Made by a program: the position numbers and the translations under genes. The notes beneath the pieces are model-generated. The model saw only the letters and a list, made by a program, of their open reading frames with translations, ran no database searches and was not told the origin of the DNA. From Candidatus Woesearchaeota archaeon (GTDB taxonomy: Archaea > Nanobdellota > Nanobdellia > Woesearchaeales > UBA10216), in NCBI GenBank assembly GCA_016192915.1, contig JACPTF010000011.1, forward strand, positions 2,118-66,117: DNA of 64,000 bases. Reading direction: 5' to 3'. Every line of letters begins with the position of its first letter. Within the stretch, counting starts at the first letter, position 1. This document shows, piece by piece, positions 41,057-58,571 of the stretch.

Positions 41057-41544
41057 ATGGTTTTTGTAAGAATCAAACGGATTTCCGGAAAAGAGTATGC
41101 CTACCTGGTTGCGAACAGCTGGACAGGCTCAGGGCCAAGGCAGAAGGTGGCAGAATACCTCGGAAGGGTAATAAGGCCTGAAAAGGCAAAAAGTGAGGCT
41201 TTGCAGGCATTTCTGGAGCTTACAAGCGAACAGGATTTGCAGCAATGGATAGGGAAAAGCGGCTTCAAAGAGATAACTGCTGCTTTGATTAGATGGGAGC
41301 TGGATAACTACGGAATTGAAGATGGCACGACGGATTCCTATGCGGCCACACCGCAAAAAAACTGCTGGAATACGATGCCGCGACCGATTATTCGGGATAC
41401 AACCTGGCTGATGCCCTCACGGCAGCAGGAATAGACGCAGGGAAGGACGTGTTCATCTCCCTCTTCGGGAAGGCCCAGGGAACAGTCGGAAAGGGCAAAA
41501 AAGAAACTGCAGAAGAGGCCGCTTTCAAGGACTTCTACTACTGA
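41057..41544 (+). pseudogene. Conserved-looking hypothetical gene broken by frameshift (probable deletion) near 41326
   Basis: The N-part reads MVFVRIKRISGKEYAYLV...RQKVAEYLGRV. A second frame continues HDGFLCGHTAKKLLEY...GYNLADALTAAGI...DVFISLFGK...KDFYY* to 41544. Confidence 0.6.
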
Positions 41545-42689
41545 ATTTCAAGCGTAATCTGGCCAGTTTTCTCGTCGATGGACTTCACGATTTTGTTGCT
41601 GCTGAAGTACCCCCTAAGCTGCTCTGGCGTGAATGTCTTCCTGAGCGTGTTGTAGTCGTCAAGGATACCCTTGACATCCTGGTAATGCTCGTAAATAAGC
41701 TCTGCGATGCGAGTGTTTTCACCTGCTACCTTCCCCATCTCTGCAACCATTGATTCCTGCTGCGCGATAGCTATCTCAAGCTCCTTAATGCGCCGCAAGG
41801 AAGGTGATTCCCTCAACGCTGAAAAGGAGGACTCAAGCTGCCTGAGCGAGAGTGCTTCCACAGCCTCGCTGAATGAAGGGAAAGGCTTGGTTTTCGCGGC
41901 TGCGGCAGAGGCTGTCGGAAACGGAAACACCTCAACCACGCTGCCGCTGCCGTCGAGAATGGCTATTGGAGAGGGCTTCCTGGACAGCATCTGCTTAAGC
42001 GAAGAAAAAAGGCCCTGAATTTCCTGCTGCGACAGCTGCGATGGCTTTTTCGCCTTGTCAACAGCAGCTGCCAAGCAAAGCTCCTCAGCATATGCGCCAG
42101 AAAGGCCGAGGTCAACGGCCAGGGCCTTTACAACAGAGTCCTTTTCCGACGACAAAACAGCCTTCTGGAACTGCGCTTCGCTAATGGATGCGAAGTCAGC
42201 TGTTGCCGGAGGAGGCATGTAATTGAAGCCGGGCCTGATGGTGCGGTCCTTCCACGCCTGATGCTCTGCAGCAGCCAGTATTACGCCCTTGTCATCCGCA
42301 AGGATTATGTTGCCCTTGCTGAACAATTCAATGATGAGCTTAACCTGCTGTTTTCTCGACGAGAAAATCAGCTCCAATATGCGCTCGGAGCCAAGCTGAC
42401 TGACCGAGACCAGCTTTGCATTGCCAAGGTGCTGCCTGAGCATGCTGCAAAAGCCGCCTGGCTTCTCTGAAGTCGCGGGCTTTGCCGCCGAGGAGAAAAC
42501 CACAGAGGGTGCAAGGACTGCCAAGAACCACTTGCCCTCACTTGTGCTTAGCTGGATAGCTATTTCCTTGCTGCCTTTCCTGCCACTTGCCGTTGCCAGC
42601 TCATAAACCTGGCCAACCCAAGAGCCTTCAAGCTGCTTCAGCTCACTCGCCAGCGCCCTTAACTCGATTGAAGCAAGCTGGTTCCTCAT
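41538..42689 (-). CDS. NFACT/Rqc2 (FbpA-like) protein, N-terminal portion only
   Basis: FCSMLRQHLGNAKL..VSQLGSERI, LIIELFSKGNIIL, DRTIRPG..Y.PP, GLSGAYAEELC and a coiled coil. It ends at 383 aa without an NFACT-R domain. Confidence 0.85.
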   Translation of the reverse strand: MRNQLASIELRALASELKQLEGSWVGQVYELATASGRKGSKEIAIQLSTSEGKWFLAVLAPSVVFSSAAKPATSEKPGGFCSMLRQHLGNAKLVSVSQLGSERILELIFSSRKQQVKLIIELFSKGNIILADDKGVILAAAEHQAWKDRTIRPGFNYMPPPATADFASISEAQFQKAVLSSEKDSVVKALAVDLGLSGAYAEELCLAAAVDKAKKPSQLSQQEIQGLFSSLKQMLSRKPSPIAILDGSGSVVEVFPFPTASAAAAKTKPFPSFSEAVEALSLRQLESSFSALRESPSLRRIKELEIAIAQQESMVAEMGKVAGENTRIAELIYEHYQDVKGILDDYNTLRKTFTPEQLRGYFSSNKIVKSIDEKTGQITLEIQ

Positions 42690-42798
42690 TTTGCACTCAC
42701 TTTTACATTTTTAGACGAACTTTTAGTGTATGGAATGCCCATCCTGACACTGTTGAGCAAAGTATTTAAATACGTTTCCCATTGAAGAAGCTTCAAAA

Positions 42799-43440
42799 AT
42801 GGGGTTTTTTGGCTTATTCGGCTCTAAAAAGGAAAGGAGGGAAGAAAAACCCTCGACAGAGCTCTCACTTTCGCCCTTTGCAGTCATAGAAGGCAAGGTA
42901 ATATCTGCGTTCTCCAAGGTAAAGCAGGACATAACACTCATAAGCTCCTGGCTCAAGTACCTCAGGCACAAGGACCTGCTGCACGAGCAAAGGCACACCA
43001 AAACGCACAGGGAGCTTGGGGAGCACAAAGTAAGGATTGAAAGGCTGCAAGCGGAAATGGCAGAGCTCAAGGCATTCTTCAGGGAGGCAAAAGAGGCAAA
43101 AACCGCTGCCCAAACAGGTTCGTTTCCGAACCTAATCCGGACTAAATCCGAACCTAAAGCGGACCTAAAACGAACCCAGTTTGAAAACAGGGTTGTAAGC
43201 ACGCTTAGGAGCAGAAGAAAGGACTATGTTTTGAAGCAAATTCTTGAATTAGCAGCGAAAGAAACGCATTCAACAAGTGAAATAGAGCAAATTGTCGTCG
43301 GAGAAAAAGCTTTGTGCGGAAGGACCGCATTCTACGATTATTTGAGGGAGCTTAAGCACAAAAAGATGATAAGGCAGGGCGAAAATGGCGCAAAAAAAGT
43401 GATTTTGCTCGCTGAAGCCGGTTTGGAGCAGGTTCGTTAA
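42799..43440 (+). CDS. Coiled-coil / C-terminal winged-helix DNA-binding-like protein
   Basis: Amphipathic-looking N-terminus MGFFGLFGSKK, coiled coil, repeat-encoded linker, then ILEL...TSEIEQIVVGEKALCGRTAFYDYLRELKHKKMI (HTH-like). Confidence 0.7.
   Translation: MGFFGLFGSKKERREEKPSTELSLSPFAVIEGKVISAFSKVKQDITLISSWLKYLRHKDLLHEQRHTKTHRELGEHKVRIERLQAEMAELKAFFREAKEAKTAAQTGSFPNLIRTKSEPKADLKRTQFENRVVSTLRSRRKDYVLKQILELAAKETHSTSEIEQIVVGEKALCGRTAFYDYLRELKHKKMIRQGENGAKKVILLAEAGLEQVR
43115..43179 (+). repeat. 11-bp tandem repeat array A (intragenic)
   Basis: CAGGTTCGTT then TCCGAACCTAA TCCGGACTAAA TCCGAACCTAA AGCGGACCTAA AACGAACCCAG. Confidence 0.85.
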
Positions 43441-43482
43441 CGAACTAAGTCCGGACTTAATCCGAACCTAGTCCGGACCTAC
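43429..43482 (+). repeat. 11-bp tandem repeat array B (gene end/intergenic)
   Basis: CAGGTTCGTT then AACGAACTAAG TCCGGACTTAA TCCGAACCTAG TCCGGACCTAC. Confidence 0.85.
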
Positions 43483-44012
43483 ATCAGCAGCTTCTTGATT
43501 TTGGCCGCAAATGCCTTGACATCGGCTGTTTTTGCTGTTGTGGTGTTGAACGTAACAACCCTATGGCCGTTTTCCTGTGCCTCGGCAAGGCAGGTGTCAA
43601 AAATCTCGGCATCGAGGTTTTCGCGGATTTTAGCCCTACCGTAGCCCTTCTCCTGCAGGCGGTGCTGAAGGGTTTTTAGGCTGCAGCGGGTTACAAGGCA
43701 CAAATCAGCGTACTTCCCGGGCAGGAAGTGAGACAGGTGAGAGTCAAAAATGATGCCATTCTGGGCTGTTTTTGAGGCCTTAAGCGCTTTTTCCCTCACT
43801 TTTACAAGCTTCCGGGCTAATTTAGCCTCGTCTACAACGTAAGAGTGCCTTTTGGCATCGTAGCTGCCATAGAGGTGAGCCTTCTTCACGAATGAATTGA
43901 CATCAAAGTACGTATAATCCAGCAGAAGTGAGAGCTTTTTGGCGAGTGTTGTCTTGCCAGTGCCTGGAGTGCCTGTGACAATCAGGGTTACAAAGCGGGG
44001 TTTCATCTCCAA
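43479..44012 (-). CDS. Adenylate kinase, AK6/Fap7 archaeal type
   Basis: VTGTPGTGKTT P-loop, DSHLSH and L..KGY...KIRENLDAEI. Confidence 0.88.
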   Translation of the reverse strand: MEMKPRFVTLIVTGTPGTGKTTLAKKLSLLLDYTYFDVNSFVKKAHLYGSYDAKRHSYVVDEAKLARKLVKVREKALKASKTAQNGIIFDSHLSHFLPGKYADLCLVTRCSLKTLQHRLQEKGYGRAKIRENLDAEIFDTCLAEAQENGHRVVTFNTTTAKTADVKAFAAKIKKLLM

Positions 44013-44278
44013 GCCTCCTGTCTTTTAGGCACTAGGTTGAAAAGTGAGTTTAAGACGCAATTCCGCGAAGAGCGGAATGCGCAATCGGGCGCATCCCGAT
44101 TTGCGTCTTTTTCAACTGCCCCATCGGCTTCCAGAATAAGAATTGCGGCGGTTGCGTGAGGCGCATAAACTAGGCAGATGCCACCTTTAACGCCAAAATC
44201 AGCCACTATTGCTTCCACTTTGGCTGTTATGTCTATGATTTCGTCCTTTCTCGTCGTGGAAAGCCTTATCTCCTTCAT
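44003..44278 (-). pseudogene. yjbQ: Truncated YjbQ (UPF0047) with in-frame palindromic insertion
   Basis: EIIDIT..V, GICLVYAPHATAA..I.E, then EKD-[16 extra aa]-VLNSLFNLVP. The C-terminal half (H..N...H, LGTWQ, EFDGPR) is missing. Confidence 0.75.
44052..44109. repeat. Palindromic three-way-junction element
   Basis: Stem AAGACGCAA/TTGCGTCTT enclosing the hairpins TTCCGC-GAAGA-GCGGAA and ATCGGG-CGCAT-CCCGAT. Confidence 0.8.
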
Positions 44279-44379: not shown

Positions 44380-45072
44380 ATGGCATCAAGAAACTTTCTG
44401 CTAGTATCTTTGGAAGAGAGCAAAGCGAAGCAGCTTGCGCAGATAGTCAGCAACGATGTATGCAGGAGAATCCTTGACTATCTGGCTGCAAAGGAGAAGC
44501 ACGCGACAGAAACAGAGGTAGCAAAGGACTTAGGAATGCCTTTGTCGACAGTGCATTACAACCTCAAGCAGCTTCTTCAGAGCGGGATTGTAAAAACCGA
44601 GGAGTTTCATTACTCTGAAAAGGGCAGGGAGGTGCTGCACTACAGCCTCGCCAATAAGTACATCATTATTGCTCCAAAAGCCAGTGCTACGGAAAGCTTA
44701 GCCAATAAGCTCAGGAAGATCCTGCCGGTTGTTGGGGTAGTTGCTGCTACAGGGATTGCCATACAGCTGTTTAGCACTCTGCAGCAGGGAGCGATAGGCA
44801 GAAGCTTTGCGGCATCGTATTCTGCACAGAGAACTTTAGAGCAGGGAGTAGTCCAGAAAGCTGCAGAGGCTGTAGTTCCGCAAGCAGCAACAGCAGCATC
44901 GGCAGTCACAGAAAAGGTTGCGAATGAAACAGCAGCGCCTGCAATTAGGGAAGTGGTTGTGCAGACAGTTCAGCAGCCGGCAAACATAGCCTTGTGGTTT
45001 GCAATTGGGGCCTTATTCGCGCTGGTTGTGTACCTGATTTATGATGTTGTCAGGGAGAGAAGGCAAAAGTGA
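44380..45072 (+). CDS. ArsR-family HTH regulator with two C-terminal TM helices
   Basis: RRILDYL...TETEVAKDLGMPLSTVHYNLKQL..SGIV and YSEKGREV, plus two hydrophobic segments. Confidence 0.85.
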   Translation: MASRNFLLVSLEESKAKQLAQIVSNDVCRRILDYLAAKEKHATETEVAKDLGMPLSTVHYNLKQLLQSGIVKTEEFHYSEKGREVLHYSLANKYIIIAPKASATESLANKLRKILPVVGVVAATGIAIQLFSTLQQGAIGRSFAASYSAQRTLEQGVVQKAAEAVVPQAATAASAVTEKVANETAAPAIREVVVQTVQQPANIALWFAIGALFALVVYLIYDVVRERRQK

Positions 45073-53882: not shown

Positions 53883-54836
53883 TTAAAGGTTTGTAAACGA
53901 AACCAGCTCAAAATCCTCGCTGCCGATTTTGAATTTCTTCAGCACCTTTGGTTTGAACTTGCAATCCGCAGCGGCAACCGAAACGGCATCTTTGTCCTTT
54001 AGCAAAAAAACGATAGAGCCGTCCTTTTTAAGGAAATATCGAGCCTGATAAAAGAATTCTCTGTACATCTTAGCCAGCTTATCATTCTCAGCTATTGCAA
54101 AAACACCTTGACCGCTCCTGAACTGCGGCGGATAACTAACAACCAAGTCAATGGAGTGTTCATCCAGCTTGGCATCAAGCCAGTTAATGTCCAGACGGCT
54201 GAACCGAATTAGCTTGTTAACACCAGCAATCTTGGCGTTCTTCTCAGCAAACCTGACGTTCTGCATTGAGGAAGAGGAGGAAAGTATTTTGGGCTTTGAG
54301 CTTTTAACACGCTTTTTAGCGGCTGCAGCCGCCTCTTTTTCAGCAGCAAAGAATTCAGCCAAATTCAGTCCCGAGAAGCGTTGCTGATGCGAAAAAGCCG
54401 AAGCCAGGACGTCTTTGCGGTAATAATTGACAGGAAAGCCAGAGCTGTAAAGGGCTGCTTCAATGGCTATCGAGCCAGACCTTGTGAAGGGGTCAAAAAG
54501 GAACTCCCTGCCGCTGTAGCCGGAAGCCCTGAGAAGCAGGTAAGCAAGGCAGCTGCTGACACCGCCGGGGTCACCAAAAACATTGTATTCCCTGCTGCCT
54601 AGGTCAAACAGGCTTATTTTCCTGCCATTAAAAAAAACAGAATTTGCCGATTGCGAAAGGTAGCAAAGTTTGCACAAATCAGAAAAGCTTTGGGCAGTGA
54701 AGTTAACCATTCCAGCCGCTGTTTTTGCTGCCTTTGCGCCAATAAGCTCGCTAACCTCAGCAGCTGCGATGCCCTCAAAGCCAGGGATGGTTACGACTGC
54801 CGCATTATGCTGAGCTTTCATGGTTGTCGGTGCCAT
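53883..54836 (-). CDS. Divergent THUMP-family RNA methyltransferase-like protein (RlmL/Trm14-like)
   Basis: [38 protein letters not shown] and VVSYPP. The THUMP region looks shortened. Confidence 0.65.
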
Positions 54837-57306
54837 TGCTTGCGCCGTTGCTGCCGTTTGCGCTTTCTTTAGGCACCTTGGCTAGTGAGACAACAGAATC
54901 GCCCTCGTCAAGCTTCATAAGCCTTACCCCCTGGGTGTTCCGGCCAATCTCTGAAACGCCTTGCGCTGCAACCCTGATTATGTTGCCCTTTTTGCTTATG
55001 GCTATAATGTCGTCATCCCCTGTGACAGAGGCAATTGCTGCGACAGGGCCGTTCCTTTCAGTTGTTTGTATGTTAATAACCCCAGAACCGCCTCGTGAAA
55101 TCAGCCTGTAGTCGCTCACAGGGCTGCGCTTGCCAAAGCCATTAACGGTTATTGTGAAAAGGGATTTTGACTCGTCAGCAACAACCATGCCTATGACAGA
55201 GTCGCTGCCCTTGAGCTTTATCGCCTTTACCCCTTTTGCAGACCTGCCAACAGGCCTGACATCCTGCTCGTCAAAGCGTACAGCAAGCCCGTTGCCTGTT
55301 GCGACAATCAGCTGCTGGCTTCCGGAAGTGGCAACAACATTAATCAGCTCGTCCTTTTCTTCGAGCGTAATTGCAATAATGCCCCCCCTCCTGGGGTTTG
55401 AATAAGCTGACAGCCCTGTCTTCTTTATAGTGCCGCTCTTTGTAATCATGACCAGGTTGCCTGCAAATTCAGTGACGGGGATGAAAGCTGTTATTTTTTC
55501 GTTCTCACGAAGCTGCAGCAAATTAACGATTGCCTTTCCAGAAGCGTACCTTGACGCCTCGGGAACCTCATGAACCTTGAGCCAGTGCACCATGCCCATG
55601 CTTGTAAAGAACAGCAGGAACGAGTGAGTGTTGGCAACAAATATGCTCTCAACAAAGTCTCCTTCCCTTGTTGCTGCAGCGATTATGCCTTTCCCCCCTC
55701 TTCTCTGCTGCCTGTACGCGTCAACCGAGATGCGCTTGATGTAACCGGCATGGGTTACTGTAACAACAACATCCTCAGGCTTTATGGTGTCCTCAGCAAC
55801 AATCTCCTCGCCAGAATCAACAATCTCTGTCCTCCTGCCGTCGCCAAACTTCTGTGAAATCCCGGAGATTTCTGAAATTATAATCTTAGATACCCTGGAC
55901 TCTGAAGCCAGGATGCCGTGGTAATCGGCAATGTCCTTAAGCAGACCAGCGTGCTCATCCCTGATGCTCTGCTGCTCCAAGGAGACGAGGCGCTGCAGCT
56001 TCATCTCAAGGACTGCCTCGGCCTGCTTCTCAGACAAGGAGAACTGCGATGTTAAAGATGACCTGGCAGATGCCTTATCATCGCTACCCCTGATTAGGCT
56101 TATCACGGCATCAATGTTTTTCAAAGCAACCAGCAAGCCCTCAAGAAGGTGAGCCTTGTCCTGGGCAGTCCTCAGCAGGAAGGCTGTCCTCTTCCTGACA
56201 ACCTCACGCCTGTGCACGATAAAAGAGTCAATCATGCCGCGCAGGGTGACCTGCTTGGGAACACGGCCAACAAGCGCTATCAATGCGATTGGAAAAGAGC
56301 TGTCAAGCCTGCTGTGGACAAGCAGCTGGTTCAGAATAATCTCAGGGTTAGCGTCCTTCTTCAAATCTATGACAACGCGAATCCCCTCCCTGTTGCTTTC
56401 ATCCCGGATGTCCTCAACTCCAGTAACAACCTTATCCCTGACCAAGCCAGCTAATTCCTCTACCATCAATGATTTGTTAACCTGATAAGGAATCTCTGAG
56501 ACTATTATACTGGTACGGCCTTTTCTCTGCTCAAAGGCAGTACGGGCCCTGACGCGGATGATGCCCCTGCCGTTAAGGTATGCTTCGCGGATGCCGCCAG
56601 TGCCGCAGATGATGCCACCAGTAGGAAAATCCGGGCCTGGAACAAGCCGGACAAGCTCTTCAAAGGATAAATCAGGATTGTTAATGGCAGCAACAATAGC
56701 TGCACAGATTTCCATCAAATTATGGGGAGGAATATTAGTTGCCATGCCTACAGCTATCCCTGAGCTGCCGTTGACAAGAAGGGTGGGGAACTTCCCGGGA
56801 AGTACAACAGGCTCCTCAAGGCTGCCGTCAAAATTCTTTGCAAAGCCAACAGTTTCCTTGTCAATGTCCTCAAGAAGAAGCTCGGCAATCGCTGACAGCC
56901 TAGCTTCAGTATACCTCTGGGCCGCAGCTCCATCCCCGTCGACGCTACCGAAATTCCCTTGCCCGTCAACAAGTGGGTAACGCAGGGAGAATCCCTGAGC
57001 CATCCTAACAAGAGCATCATAAACGGCCATGTCGCCATGGGGGTGGTACTTGCCCATAGTGTCACCCACAATCCTGGCGCACTTCCTGTAAGGCTTGTTG
57101 TGCTGCAGACCCAAATCAAGCATGGCAAAAAGAATCCTCCTCTGAACCGGTTTTAACCCATCGCGGACGTCAGGCAAGGCCCTGGAGACAAGGACAGACA
57201 TGGCATAATCCAGGTAAGAAGACTTCATTTCCTCTTCAATCTCACGATTAAGGATGGATGATTTCAACCCGGTTTCCGGTACCTTTTCTGGGAGATTTTC
57301 TGCCAT
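54805..57306 (-). CDS. gyrA: DNA gyrase subunit A
   Basis: [38 protein letters not shown] catalytic Tyr, GyrA-box QRRGGKG and C-terminal repeats. Confidence 0.97.
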
Positions 57307-57841: not shown

Positions 57842-57976
57842 CTTATTGACGTTAAAAGAGAAATTGCAGTAAACGCACTTCTTGACCTTTTTGAAAACAT
57901 CGCCATCGCCGCTGCCGGCTTTTGCAGGCTGGTACTTCATCCTGTTATGGCACCTGGGGCACTCAAGAAGGAGCAT
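57821..57976 (-). CDS. 51-aa zinc-ribbon protein
   Basis: Below the ORF-track cutoff. MLLLECPRCHNRMKYQPAKAGSGDGDVFKKVKKCVYCNFSFNVNKSVVQKL* has two CxxC motifs, and its start overlaps the scpB end. Confidence 0.75.
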   Translation of the reverse strand: MLLLECPRCHNRMKYQPAKAGSGDGDVFKKVKKCVYCNFSFNVNKSVVQKL

Positions 57977-58571
57977 TTTCCGGCCCTCCTGGCGCGGCAG
58001 GCGCGGCTTGCGGCTGCTGTGGCTGTAATTGTGGCGAATTTGCGGCTGCTTCAGGCATGCCCTTGAACTTTTCCCTGACTTCCTGCTCTGTTTTCACGTC
58101 GAAATACTTGAAGAAGCGCTCGGTAAGCTTAATCATCTTCGACCTGCCGTGCTTCTCCCTGGTTATGAAGCCGGATTTTTCGAGGGCTGCGAGGTGGTCG
58201 TAGGCCTTGTTTGTCCTTATCCTTATCACGTTAGACTGCAGAACAGGAGCCTTCCAAGCGATTACAGCAAGGGTCTCAATCATGGTCCTTGTAAGCTCAG
58301 TCTCGGCAACAATCTTCTGCACAACAGGGGCATACTGCTCCCGCACAGTGAGTTTCCATCCGTCAGCTTCGTCTATCAGCAACAGCGATGAATCCTTGCT
58401 TTCGTACTCGCTTTTCAACTGCTGCAGCTGCTGCTGAACTACAACAGCAGTTGTCCGGCACAGCCGTGCAAGCTCGTCAACAGGCATTTTCCTGCCGGAA
58501 GCAAACAAGATGGCTTCAAGCTGCTTCCTCAAATCCTGCTTAACAACATTCTCAGACATAGTGGATGACAT
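57963..58571 (-). CDS. scpB: SMC-Scp complex subunit ScpB
   Basis: LEAILFASG, ETLAVIAWKAPV.QS.VI.IR and LTERFFKYF. Confidence 0.9.
   Translation of the reverse strand: MSSTMSENVVKQDLRKQLEAILFASGRKMPVDELARLCRTTAVVVQQQLQQLKSEYESKDSSLLLIDEADGWKLTVREQYAPVVQKIVAETELTRTMIETLAVIAWKAPVLQSNVIRIRTNKAYDHLAALEKSGFITREKHGRSKMIKLTERFFKYFDVKTEQEVREKFKGMPEAAANSPQLQPQQPQAAPAAPGGPENAPS

Follow-up and report, generated by a model that had tools for sequence, protein, structure and literature searches.

A gene with two arrays of short repeats

Why should a small archaeal chromosome carry, inside and directly behind a single protein-coding gene, two matched arrays of 11-bp units that recur nowhere else in that genome? 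The question is raised by a 64,000-nucleotide stretch of DNA, hereafter the window, from Candidatus Woesearchaeota archaeon (GCA_016192915.1, contig JACPTF010000011.1, positions 2,118-66,117 of the forward strand), whose genome is available as a 1.2-Mb assembly in 20 contigs with an estimated completeness of 93%. The gene concerned (42799-43440, +), delineated by its open reading frame (ORF) and translation, encodes a 213-aa protein, P0001; array A lies within it and array B runs over its TAA stop codon (43438-43440, +). Comparative evidence strongly supports the core idea of a first-pass annotation of this DNA made from the sequence alone, namely that the protein has its own phased sites in its own gene.

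Array A (43115-43179, +) opens with an inverted core, GTTCG (43118-43122), followed by five direct CGRAC cores starting at 43127, 43138, 43149, 43160 and 43171, i.e. with a period of 11 bp; its units are, in order, CAGGTTCGTT, then TCCGAACCTAA, TCCGGACTAAA, TCCGAACCTAA, AGCGGACCTAA and AACGAACCCAG. It encodes residues ~106-127 of the protein (TGSFPNLIRTKSEPKADLKRT), with the units falling in all three codon phases. Array B (43429-43482, +) is laid out in the same way, with an inverted GTTCG core at 43432-43436, the stop codon, and then four direct cores starting at 43441, 43452, 43463 and 43474 (in order CAGGTTCGTT, then AACGAACTAAG, TCCGGACTTAA, TCCGAACCTAG and TCCGGACCTAC). As the stop codon of the convergent AAA_18 gene (43479-43481, -) falls within its last unit, array B occupies the entire intergenic gap. 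The segment between the arrays (43180-43428, +) encodes a winged helix domain, including the recognition helix CGRTAFYDYLREL (residues 173-185). The locus thus displays nine direct and two inverted units, with GAAC and GGAC alternating in both arrays. In its array coordinates, inverted-then-direct layout, alternation and 314-bp offset between the arrays, the sequence reads as the first-pass annotation had it.

The arrays are real and far beyond chance expectation. Two copies of the 10-mer CAGGTTCGTT, 314 bp apart, are the only ones in the window, a repeat search recovers 53-nt copies at 43115-43167 and 43429-43481 that are 83% identical, and Tandem Repeats Finder (TRF) detects both arrays, with periods of 22 and 11. 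Single units matched with up to two mismatches are not enriched (18 in the window vs 18.5 expected from shuffles); the five matches with zero or one mismatch all lie in the two arrays. Across the 1.2-Mb genome a two-unit pattern gives 7 matches, all at the P0001 locus, against 1 for the reversed control, and three CGRAC cores at 11-bp spacing give 5 matches, again all at this locus, against a control of 0. An assembly artefact is excluded because both arrays are present in 20 of 23 independent assemblies, which also disposes of the concern that array B might be an assembly duplication. Further, the interval 42600-43700 is covered, with 2 differences, by a contig from one public DNA run, although the DNA may itself derive from that run.

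Conservation of the arrays together with the gene

A word-index search recovered 55 homologues of P0001, of which all the named ones are hypothetical proteins from Woesearchaeota or Nanoarchaeota, while an exhaustive phmmer search yielded 153 cluster representatives at E<=1e-3 and matches in the ESM Atlas were to clusters of hypothetical proteins assigned to Woesearchaeota and Nanobdellota. The Woesearchaeota labels of these relatives bear out the DPANN origin that had been surmised from the sequence. For comparison, 23 related loci with 35-79% protein identity were taken from named genome assemblies. Both CGRAC arrays, with their 11-bp spacing, are found in 20 of the 23, down to ~35% protein identity (array A in 22 and array B in 21, with L016 and L029, which are cut by contig ends, showing one array each), and also in L032, a further relative beyond this set. 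In the loci of this clade each array begins with the inverted pair GTYCG-N4-CGRAC. Among 151 sampled genomes of the order, the three-core pattern is present in 4, at one locus each (control: 1 match); in one of them, G385, two three-core arrays lie 337 bp apart. Comparison of genomes thereby shows the arrays at a single locus per genome, and the expectation that they would be conserved together with the gene and unique in the genome is confirmed. In L028, the only complete locus lacking a CGRAC array B, a different 11-bp repeat, ATAGAGGGATA, is present in ~2.8 copies at 2358-2407, ~110 bp after the stop codon.

The level at which this conservation operates can be gauged from codon and unit statistics, from which the partial loci L014, L016 and L029, as well as L032, a near-duplicate of L025, were omitted. 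In 21 loci array A comprises 94 coding units distributed over the codon phases as 28/25/41, and 84 of the 85 units of array B, likewise from 21 loci, are non-coding; the units of both arrays give one consensus, WWTC-CGRAC-YWR, which extends to flanking positions that were not used in picking them. Third-codon-position identity is 0.69 over codons 107-122 but drops to 0.45 for the winged helix and to 0.37 for the long helix that precedes the linker, and the best 16-codon window for this measure in the whole gene lies on array A. At the protein level the linker peptide SFPNLIRTKSEP is the most conserved stretch outside the recognition helix, with R114, T115 and S117 being invariant, which is unusual in a disordered segment. 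Its variable residues (N/D, E/G, I/V and L/Q) are the products of base changes which the unit tolerates, and R114 is invariant because the degenerate R of the core sits at a synonymous third position. Given the same consensus in coding and non-coding units and the conservation of third positions, the apparent linker motif is the shadow of a DNA or RNA signal. Comparison thus shows the arrays to be under selection at the nucleic-acid level and physically coupled to the gene, in line with the earlier claim that the repeats act at this level.

These observations bear directly on the notion that the arrays are neutral slippage repeats in a disordered linker, with array B resembling array A by chance. 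Some distant clades do possess a 12-bp linker repeat that gives plain peptide repeats (VQTA/VQTP). However, the period of 11 is not divisible by 3, the unit is conserved in 22 of the 23 loci despite protein identities as low as ~35%, the non-coding array shares the consensus, and the three-core arrays in the 151 genomes are found only at the P0001-family gene. For the window's clade, slippage is already contradicted by the comparative sequence data, and it is extremely improbable as an explanation of the locus.

Architecture and fold of P0001

An AlphaFold2 model of P0001 built on 37 homologues (mean pLDDT 77) comprises a low-confidence N-terminus, one long helix (residues 26-105, pLDDT >90), a low-confidence linker predicted to be disordered (106-126) and a winged helix (127-204) made up of helices, a helix-turn-helix (HTH) and a beta hairpin wing. 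The low-confidence linker is exactly the part that array A encodes, and the build claimed from the sequence (N-terminal tip, long helix, array-A-encoded linker and C-terminal HTH) agrees with the model. The N-terminal tip of P0001, MGFFGLFGSKK, is hydrophobic in its MGFFGLFG motif and then basic, a pattern that recurs in the family as M-G-[FIL]-[FL]-x-[LF]-F followed by basic residues, with M1 and F7 conserved in at least 90% of members. The long helix displays a conserved polar face (F38, W51, Y54, K58, D59 and H66). A homodimer prediction with two copies of residues 24-110 (alignment A1) gave a score of 0.02, which is uninformative either way.

Structural searches with Foldseek and VIA-align match the C-terminal domain only. 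The matches are to winged helices of many kinds, including PadR/LmrR, PerR/Fur, MecI, the Rpa2 winged helix (WH), the cullin WHB and pNOB8 AspA, at Z 8-10 and E 0.015 or worse; hence the fold is generic and no subfamily can be named. The resemblance to PadR/LmrR, at Z ~9, reflects a shared fold and not family membership. Sequence searches of Pfam, NCBIfam and PHROGs recovered no family for P0001, with Pfam at E<=0.1 giving coiled-coil noise only and no HTH family, and the distant homologues showed only sub-threshold matches to FUR, PadR and HTH_27. A sequence profile search of the PDB likewise returned only coiled-coil noise (E>=0.028) and no sequence-related solved structure.

Different units and different recognition helices in the wider family

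A profile of the window's clade matches 87 of the 301 genomes of the class, and a broader profile matches 163 of the 301 and 144 of the 205 high-quality ones. From this comparison onwards L041, the ORF of which is broken by an in-frame stop, was omitted. The distant homologues lack CGRAC arrays but possess other 10-12-bp tandem arrays at their own genes. Thus TRF recovered GTCCCA/TTCCCA and GTCTCA units and a CGTCTAC unit, all with a period of 11, upstream of the gene, and a GTTCATGAAC unit with a period of 10 and a GTCCAAAC unit with a period of 12 in the linker, where the latter gives VQTx peptide repeats. In the genomes scanned for them, such arrays occur at the homologue's own gene and nowhere else: CGTCTAC was recovered in 3 of 4 genomes, GTYCAAAC in 4 of 5 and three TCCCA copies in 2 of 5, with a control of 0 in each case.

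An alignment of the recognition helices from 49 loci pairs six helix types with six unit types: CGRTAFYDY with GTCCGRAC, C/A-SKSSFYRL with GTCCCA, CSKA(T/S)FYRY with GTCTCA, RSTVSEY with CGTCTAC, KSTIRGQIN with GTCCAAAC and VTVRRHIN with GTTCATGAAC. The type of the unit is thereby shown by comparison of sequences to go with the type of the recognition helix. The proposal that each homologue would have its own lineage-specific repeat therefore holds across the wider family, with its six units and six helices, and fails within the window's clade, where the same CGRAC unit persists down to ~35% protein identity.

Clades with GTCCCA or GTCTCA units have their arrays at -40 to -260, 5' of a canonical TATA box (~-30), in both orientations and often as two blocks around a palindrome; sister clades reach up to ~20 units per locus. 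In L037, L043, L048, L049 and L053 a conserved palindrome, TTATCGTCGATAA, is found between two GTCCCA-type array blocks at ~-100 to -150 from the ATG, and may be the site of another factor. Upstream of the gene in L033, L038, L044 and L056, a longer element, the 24-bp unit TCCACAGGAAAYAARGGGGTGTC, is repeated besides the GTCTCA units; L056 has it twice. In 19 of the distant loci (within L035-L060) the adjacent gene encodes a second family of similar build (e.g. L039:2526-3182:-, L052:3-779:+ and L035:796-1362:-), in which an SFxxVKxDI helix at the N-terminus is followed by a linker and then by a winged helix at the C-terminus. The linkers of this second family also contain tandem arrays of their own, for instance of TCAACAA with a period of 10 or of ACAGAC/TGTCTG units that give PTDKQTN-type peptides. 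The self-array design may thus be a trait of a whole superfamily, often in the form of gene pairs.

The placement of the arrays in these sister clades also helps to decide whether they might act in mRNA, as a structured or protein-bound RNA element, with array A inside the reading frame and array B in the 3' untranslated region, controlling translation or stability. In every case the arrays of the window's clade have the sense orientation and would be part of the transcript, and RNA folding gives z = -4.4 for array A and -2.8 for array B, with 0 and 1 of 200 shuffles, respectively, being as good. Yet the antisense strands fold equally well (z = -4.1 and -4.0), as is expected of near-palindromic units, and of 43 leading hairpin pairings 34 are intact and 9 disrupted, which makes no case for a selected stem. 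No Rfam family is matched at threshold (the best two reach 18 and 15 bits, where the gathering scores are 70 and 58), and arrays 5' of a TATA box in both orientations, as in the sister clades, are not expected of an mRNA element. Such a role is therefore very unlikely.

The same placement bears on the possibility that the arrays are recombination substrates, by which the winged-helix cassette would be deleted, duplicated or exchanged in a form of phase variation or domain shuffling. The 53-nt direct repeats do flank the domain-coding segment exactly, and arrays A and B are more alike within a genome (0.751) than between genomes (0.684), a weak signal of concerted evolution in which only 4 of 17 loci have the same-locus pair in first place and which is confounded by relatedness. 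On the other hand, a 314-bp deletion would shift the frame, both arrays are retained in 20 of the 23 loci, the arrays lie upstream of the gene in other clades, and no A-B joint was found in contigs of 4 runs, although contigs drop rare variants. This explanation too is highly improbable.

A proposed self-contained protein-DNA module

On balance, the gene and its two arrays probably constitute one self-contained protein-DNA module, which would bind itself, limit its own expression and provide one landmark per chromosome. Recognition of the DNA site by the winged helix that the gene itself encodes is the economical interpretation of the comparative data. In this scheme the winged helix would recognize the 5-bp core CGRAC, binding would begin at the inverted pair GTYCG-N4-CGRAC, and further copies would join along the 4-5 direct units, one per helical turn and on the same face of the DNA, such that both arrays, which flank the segment coding for the winged helix, end up covered with protein. 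RNA polymerase would then be hindered by the occupied arrays within the gene and at its 3' end, by which the gene would limit its own expression, and the sister-clade arrays immediately 5' of the TATA box would function as ordinary operators. As the arrays are found nowhere else in the genome, the complex is proposed to be a single nucleoprotein landmark per chromosome. The N-terminal half, with its hydrophobic-basic tip and conserved long helix, might link this complex to the membrane or to a partner protein, and such a linkage would give anchoring or positioning of the chromosome, a role that we consider possible rather than probable. Binding, cooperativity, the roadblock, oligomerisation via the helix and the anchoring role are all inferred.

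Since the arrays are restricted to its own gene, the protein either just regulates itself or the complex is itself the product. The latter is suggested by the many units per locus, the conserved N-terminal tip, the conserved polar face of the helix and the movement of the arrays from the promoter into and behind the ORF without loss. In its fullest form, this would be a centromere-like or anchoring system of DPANN archaea, in which the protein coats its own gene, its tip and helix fix that point to the membrane or the division apparatus, occupancy sets the protein level, and recognition helix and unit co-evolve; taken as a whole, this is a tentative and rather unlikely proposition.

The former would make P0001 an ordinary autoregulated transcription factor, with the arrays as operators or roadblocks, its real job elsewhere (at weak single sites or off DNA) and no anchoring. 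The sister-clade arrays indeed abut the TATA box like operators, the winged helix is closest in fold to PadR, Fur and MarR-type regulators, and no partition NTPase was found nearby. However, no further arrays are present in any genome tested, the 9-20 units per locus are far above what a repressor needs, the arrays of the window's clade have left the promoter entirely, and the conserved tip and polar helix face point to a second interaction. We hold this explanation to be rather unlikely.

Several points weigh against the proposed module. Binding of the arrays by P0001 is itself inferred from comparative evidence, and another protein could read them, such as the HTH_20 protein encoded nearby (44380-45072). 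One locus, L028, possesses array A but no array B of CGRAC cores. The A-B distance varies from 295 to 346 bp across loci with no common remainder and hence no helical phase, which lends no support to a phased DNA loop between the arrays, where the first-pass annotation had considered looping possible. In the wider family, the unit labels were assigned by the analyst, clade by clade, from TRF output, and as each clade represents one evolutionary event the covariation of helix and unit rests on about six events. Some loci fit poorly, with the arrays of L042 being downstream and those of L052 and L055 weak. In a scan for exact 6-mer periodicity, at least three periodic copies occur in 37 of 49 gene regions and also in 10 of 97 control flanks; most of these 10 flanks seem to overlie a neighbouring paralogue's own arrays, and the scan misses degenerate arrays, the window itself scoring 2 because its units alternate. 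Finally, no ParA-type (AAA_31-type) ATPase was detected in the 93%-complete genome, the control search being positive in 14 of 14 genomes, so that motor-driven partition is unsupported. Nor was a partition-system NTPase found beside the gene, by Pfam on the neighbours and among 27 ORFs at 26.9-40.2 and 45.0-59.9 kb, and the earlier suggestion of a partition module is not sustained.

The first-pass annotation had also considered an origin module. Under such a reading the protein would be an initiator or a factor binding to the origin, and the arrays would serve as replication-origin iterons or form a site of the terminus type. Plasmid origins typically have helically phased direct repeats within or next to the initiator gene, and in one of three other genomes (G275) the homologue lies 7 kb from orc1/cdc6. 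However, in the genome of the window orc1/cdc6 (Cdc6_C) is on contig C1 and the P0001 locus on C9, and the distances are 328 kb in G095 and 123 and 280 kb in G177. Moreover, the DNA between the arrays is coding, with a GC content of 0.48-0.49 as elsewhere in the window and no AT-rich unwinding element, and the protein has a single winged helix and no ATPase. GC skew in the window tracks gene orientation and is uninformative in this respect. As orc1/cdc6 is unlinked, an origin at this locus is very unlikely.

Comparison with known DNA-binding systems on short repeats

The proposed module invites comparison with several systems. ParR of plasmid R1 needs two 11-bp repeats, with the parA promoter being flanked by ten direct repeats (PMC9426499), and forms a superstructure on its repeats (PMC3130281). 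The type II ParR-parC system resembles the P0001 module in having direct repeats of approximately one helical turn in two clusters beside the binder's gene; the parC repeats serve as both centromere and operator, and ParR is autoregulated. ParR is, however, a ribbon-helix-helix protein, whereas P0001 is a winged helix protein by the AlphaFold2 model and fold matches. There is also no ParM beside P0001, where the neighbours are NFACT_N and AAA_18 genes, and no actin-like protein among the 27 ORFs scanned. Further, the P0001 module is chromosomal and archaeal, with arrays inside and after the coding sequence, in contrast to the placement of parC around the promoter.

The tubC centromere of type III systems is made of 12-bp repeats. 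Its binder TubR is a winged helix protein that coats the centromere and builds a nucleoprotein superhelix (PMC9178275). Fold class and repeats of P0001 would fit this system, but P0001 shows no sequence similarity to a named family, the TubZ GTPase is not among its neighbours, and TubR lacks the long coiled coil and the N-terminal hydrophobic tip. Such a tip is reminiscent of Noc of Bacillus subtilis, in which site-specific DNA binding goes together with an amphipathic helix at the N-terminus, by which DNA is drawn to the membrane (PMC4331003). By analogy, the MGFFGLFGSKK tip, with its hydrophobic-then-basic make-up, is a candidate membrane contact. Noc is nevertheless a ParB-family CTPase with many chromosomal sites, in contrast to the one locus per genome of P0001, in which no ParB N-terminal domain or ParB-type HTH was detected in Pfam (E<=0.1) or NCBIfam.

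BldC of Streptomyces is a small HTH protein that forms head-to-tail oligomers on direct repeats of variable number (PMC5859096), but it is a MerR-like protein without a coiled coil and governs a regulon as opposed to a single self-locus. Among archaea, SegB of the Sulfolobales is a site-specific binder with a centromeric site beside its own operon (PMC12139799, PMC8682754). SegB works with the ParA-type ATPase SegA, an AAA_31-type protein of the kind not detected in the P0001 genome, and no sequence relationship to it was seen. The iteron-binding Rep initiators of plasmids are winged helix proteins whose own genes, which they autoregulate, contain or adjoin phased direct repeats; they have two winged helix domains and 17-22-bp iterons next to an AT-rich region. 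The P0001 family differs from these in being chromosomal, in having one winged helix, in being unlinked to orc1/cdc6 and in lacking relatives on plasmids. By analogy, then, the P0001 module would work most like the centromere-binding proteins that act on short direct repeats. P0001 belongs to none of the systems compared, as the fold of ParR differs and there is no partner NTPase, no ParB domain and no detected sequence relationship.

Promoter, neighbourhood and transcription

The TATA-like box TATTTAAATA (42763-42772, +), read from the sequence ~30 bp 5' of the ATG, is a putative archaeal promoter that would give a leaderless or short-leader mRNA, a role that follows from what is generally known of archaeal promoters; a TTTATA/TTTAAA box at ~-35 to -28 is likewise present in the distant homologues. 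Pfam identifies the convergent neighbour (43479-44012, -) as an AAA_18 (adenylate-kinase-6-like) NTPase and the divergent neighbour (41538-42689, -) as an NFACT_N protein, both being context outside the module. All 22 of the clade's loci compared have the AAA_18 gene as their +1 convergent neighbour, and 20 of the 22 have the NFACT_N gene upstream. The P0001 gene is single-copy in its own genome, and no relatives were found in viral contigs, plasmids or phages; with this fixed synteny, the distribution of sequences indicates that the family is chromosomal and vertically inherited. The flanking genes are ordinary housekeeping and glycosylation genes and so give no sign of a mobile element.

Further downstream, a UPF0047 gene (44003-44278, -), whose ORF extends into the start of the AAA_18 gene, is truncated, with only residues 16-84 of the 150-aa L009 homologue being matched. 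The HTH_20 protein (44380-45072, +) is of the ArsR type and has a hydrophobic C-terminal segment, by which it is probably membrane-anchored. Its homologue lies two genes downstream in 8 related loci, and it is an alternative candidate reader of nearby DNA sites. The genes for ScpB (57963-58571, -) and gyrase A (54805-57306, -) are 11-15 kb downstream.

In a metatranscriptomic library, a contig belonging to a relative (~90% identity) covers 42880-43142, hence the gene's 5' half, and breaks off within array A. Most simply, this end is an assembly break at the repeat, and the library may also contain DNA; it could alternatively be a real 3' end, as a transcriptional roadblock predicts.

Implications for the family and for DPANN chromosomes

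In searches of the literature that included full texts, no publication on the P0001 family or on a self-referential arrangement of arrays was found. At this locus a DNA signal is clearly overprinted on protein-coding sequence, with an 11-bp repeat read in all three frames. The overprinted repeat fixes the sequence of a disordered linker and thereby mimics a conserved peptide motif, which calls for caution in inferring short linear motifs from conservation alone.

A family without annotation in 144 of the 205 high-quality genomes of the class thus gains a predicted binding site, a unique genomic target and a predicted specificity code of six helix types for six units, which together make its function experimentally testable. 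The finding bears on how DPANN archaea organise, position and segregate their small chromosomes, in a genome without a detected ParA-type ATPase. If the anchoring proposal were true, it would represent a centromere-like or anchoring system of a large DPANN group, in which the binding sites are written into the gene of their own reader.

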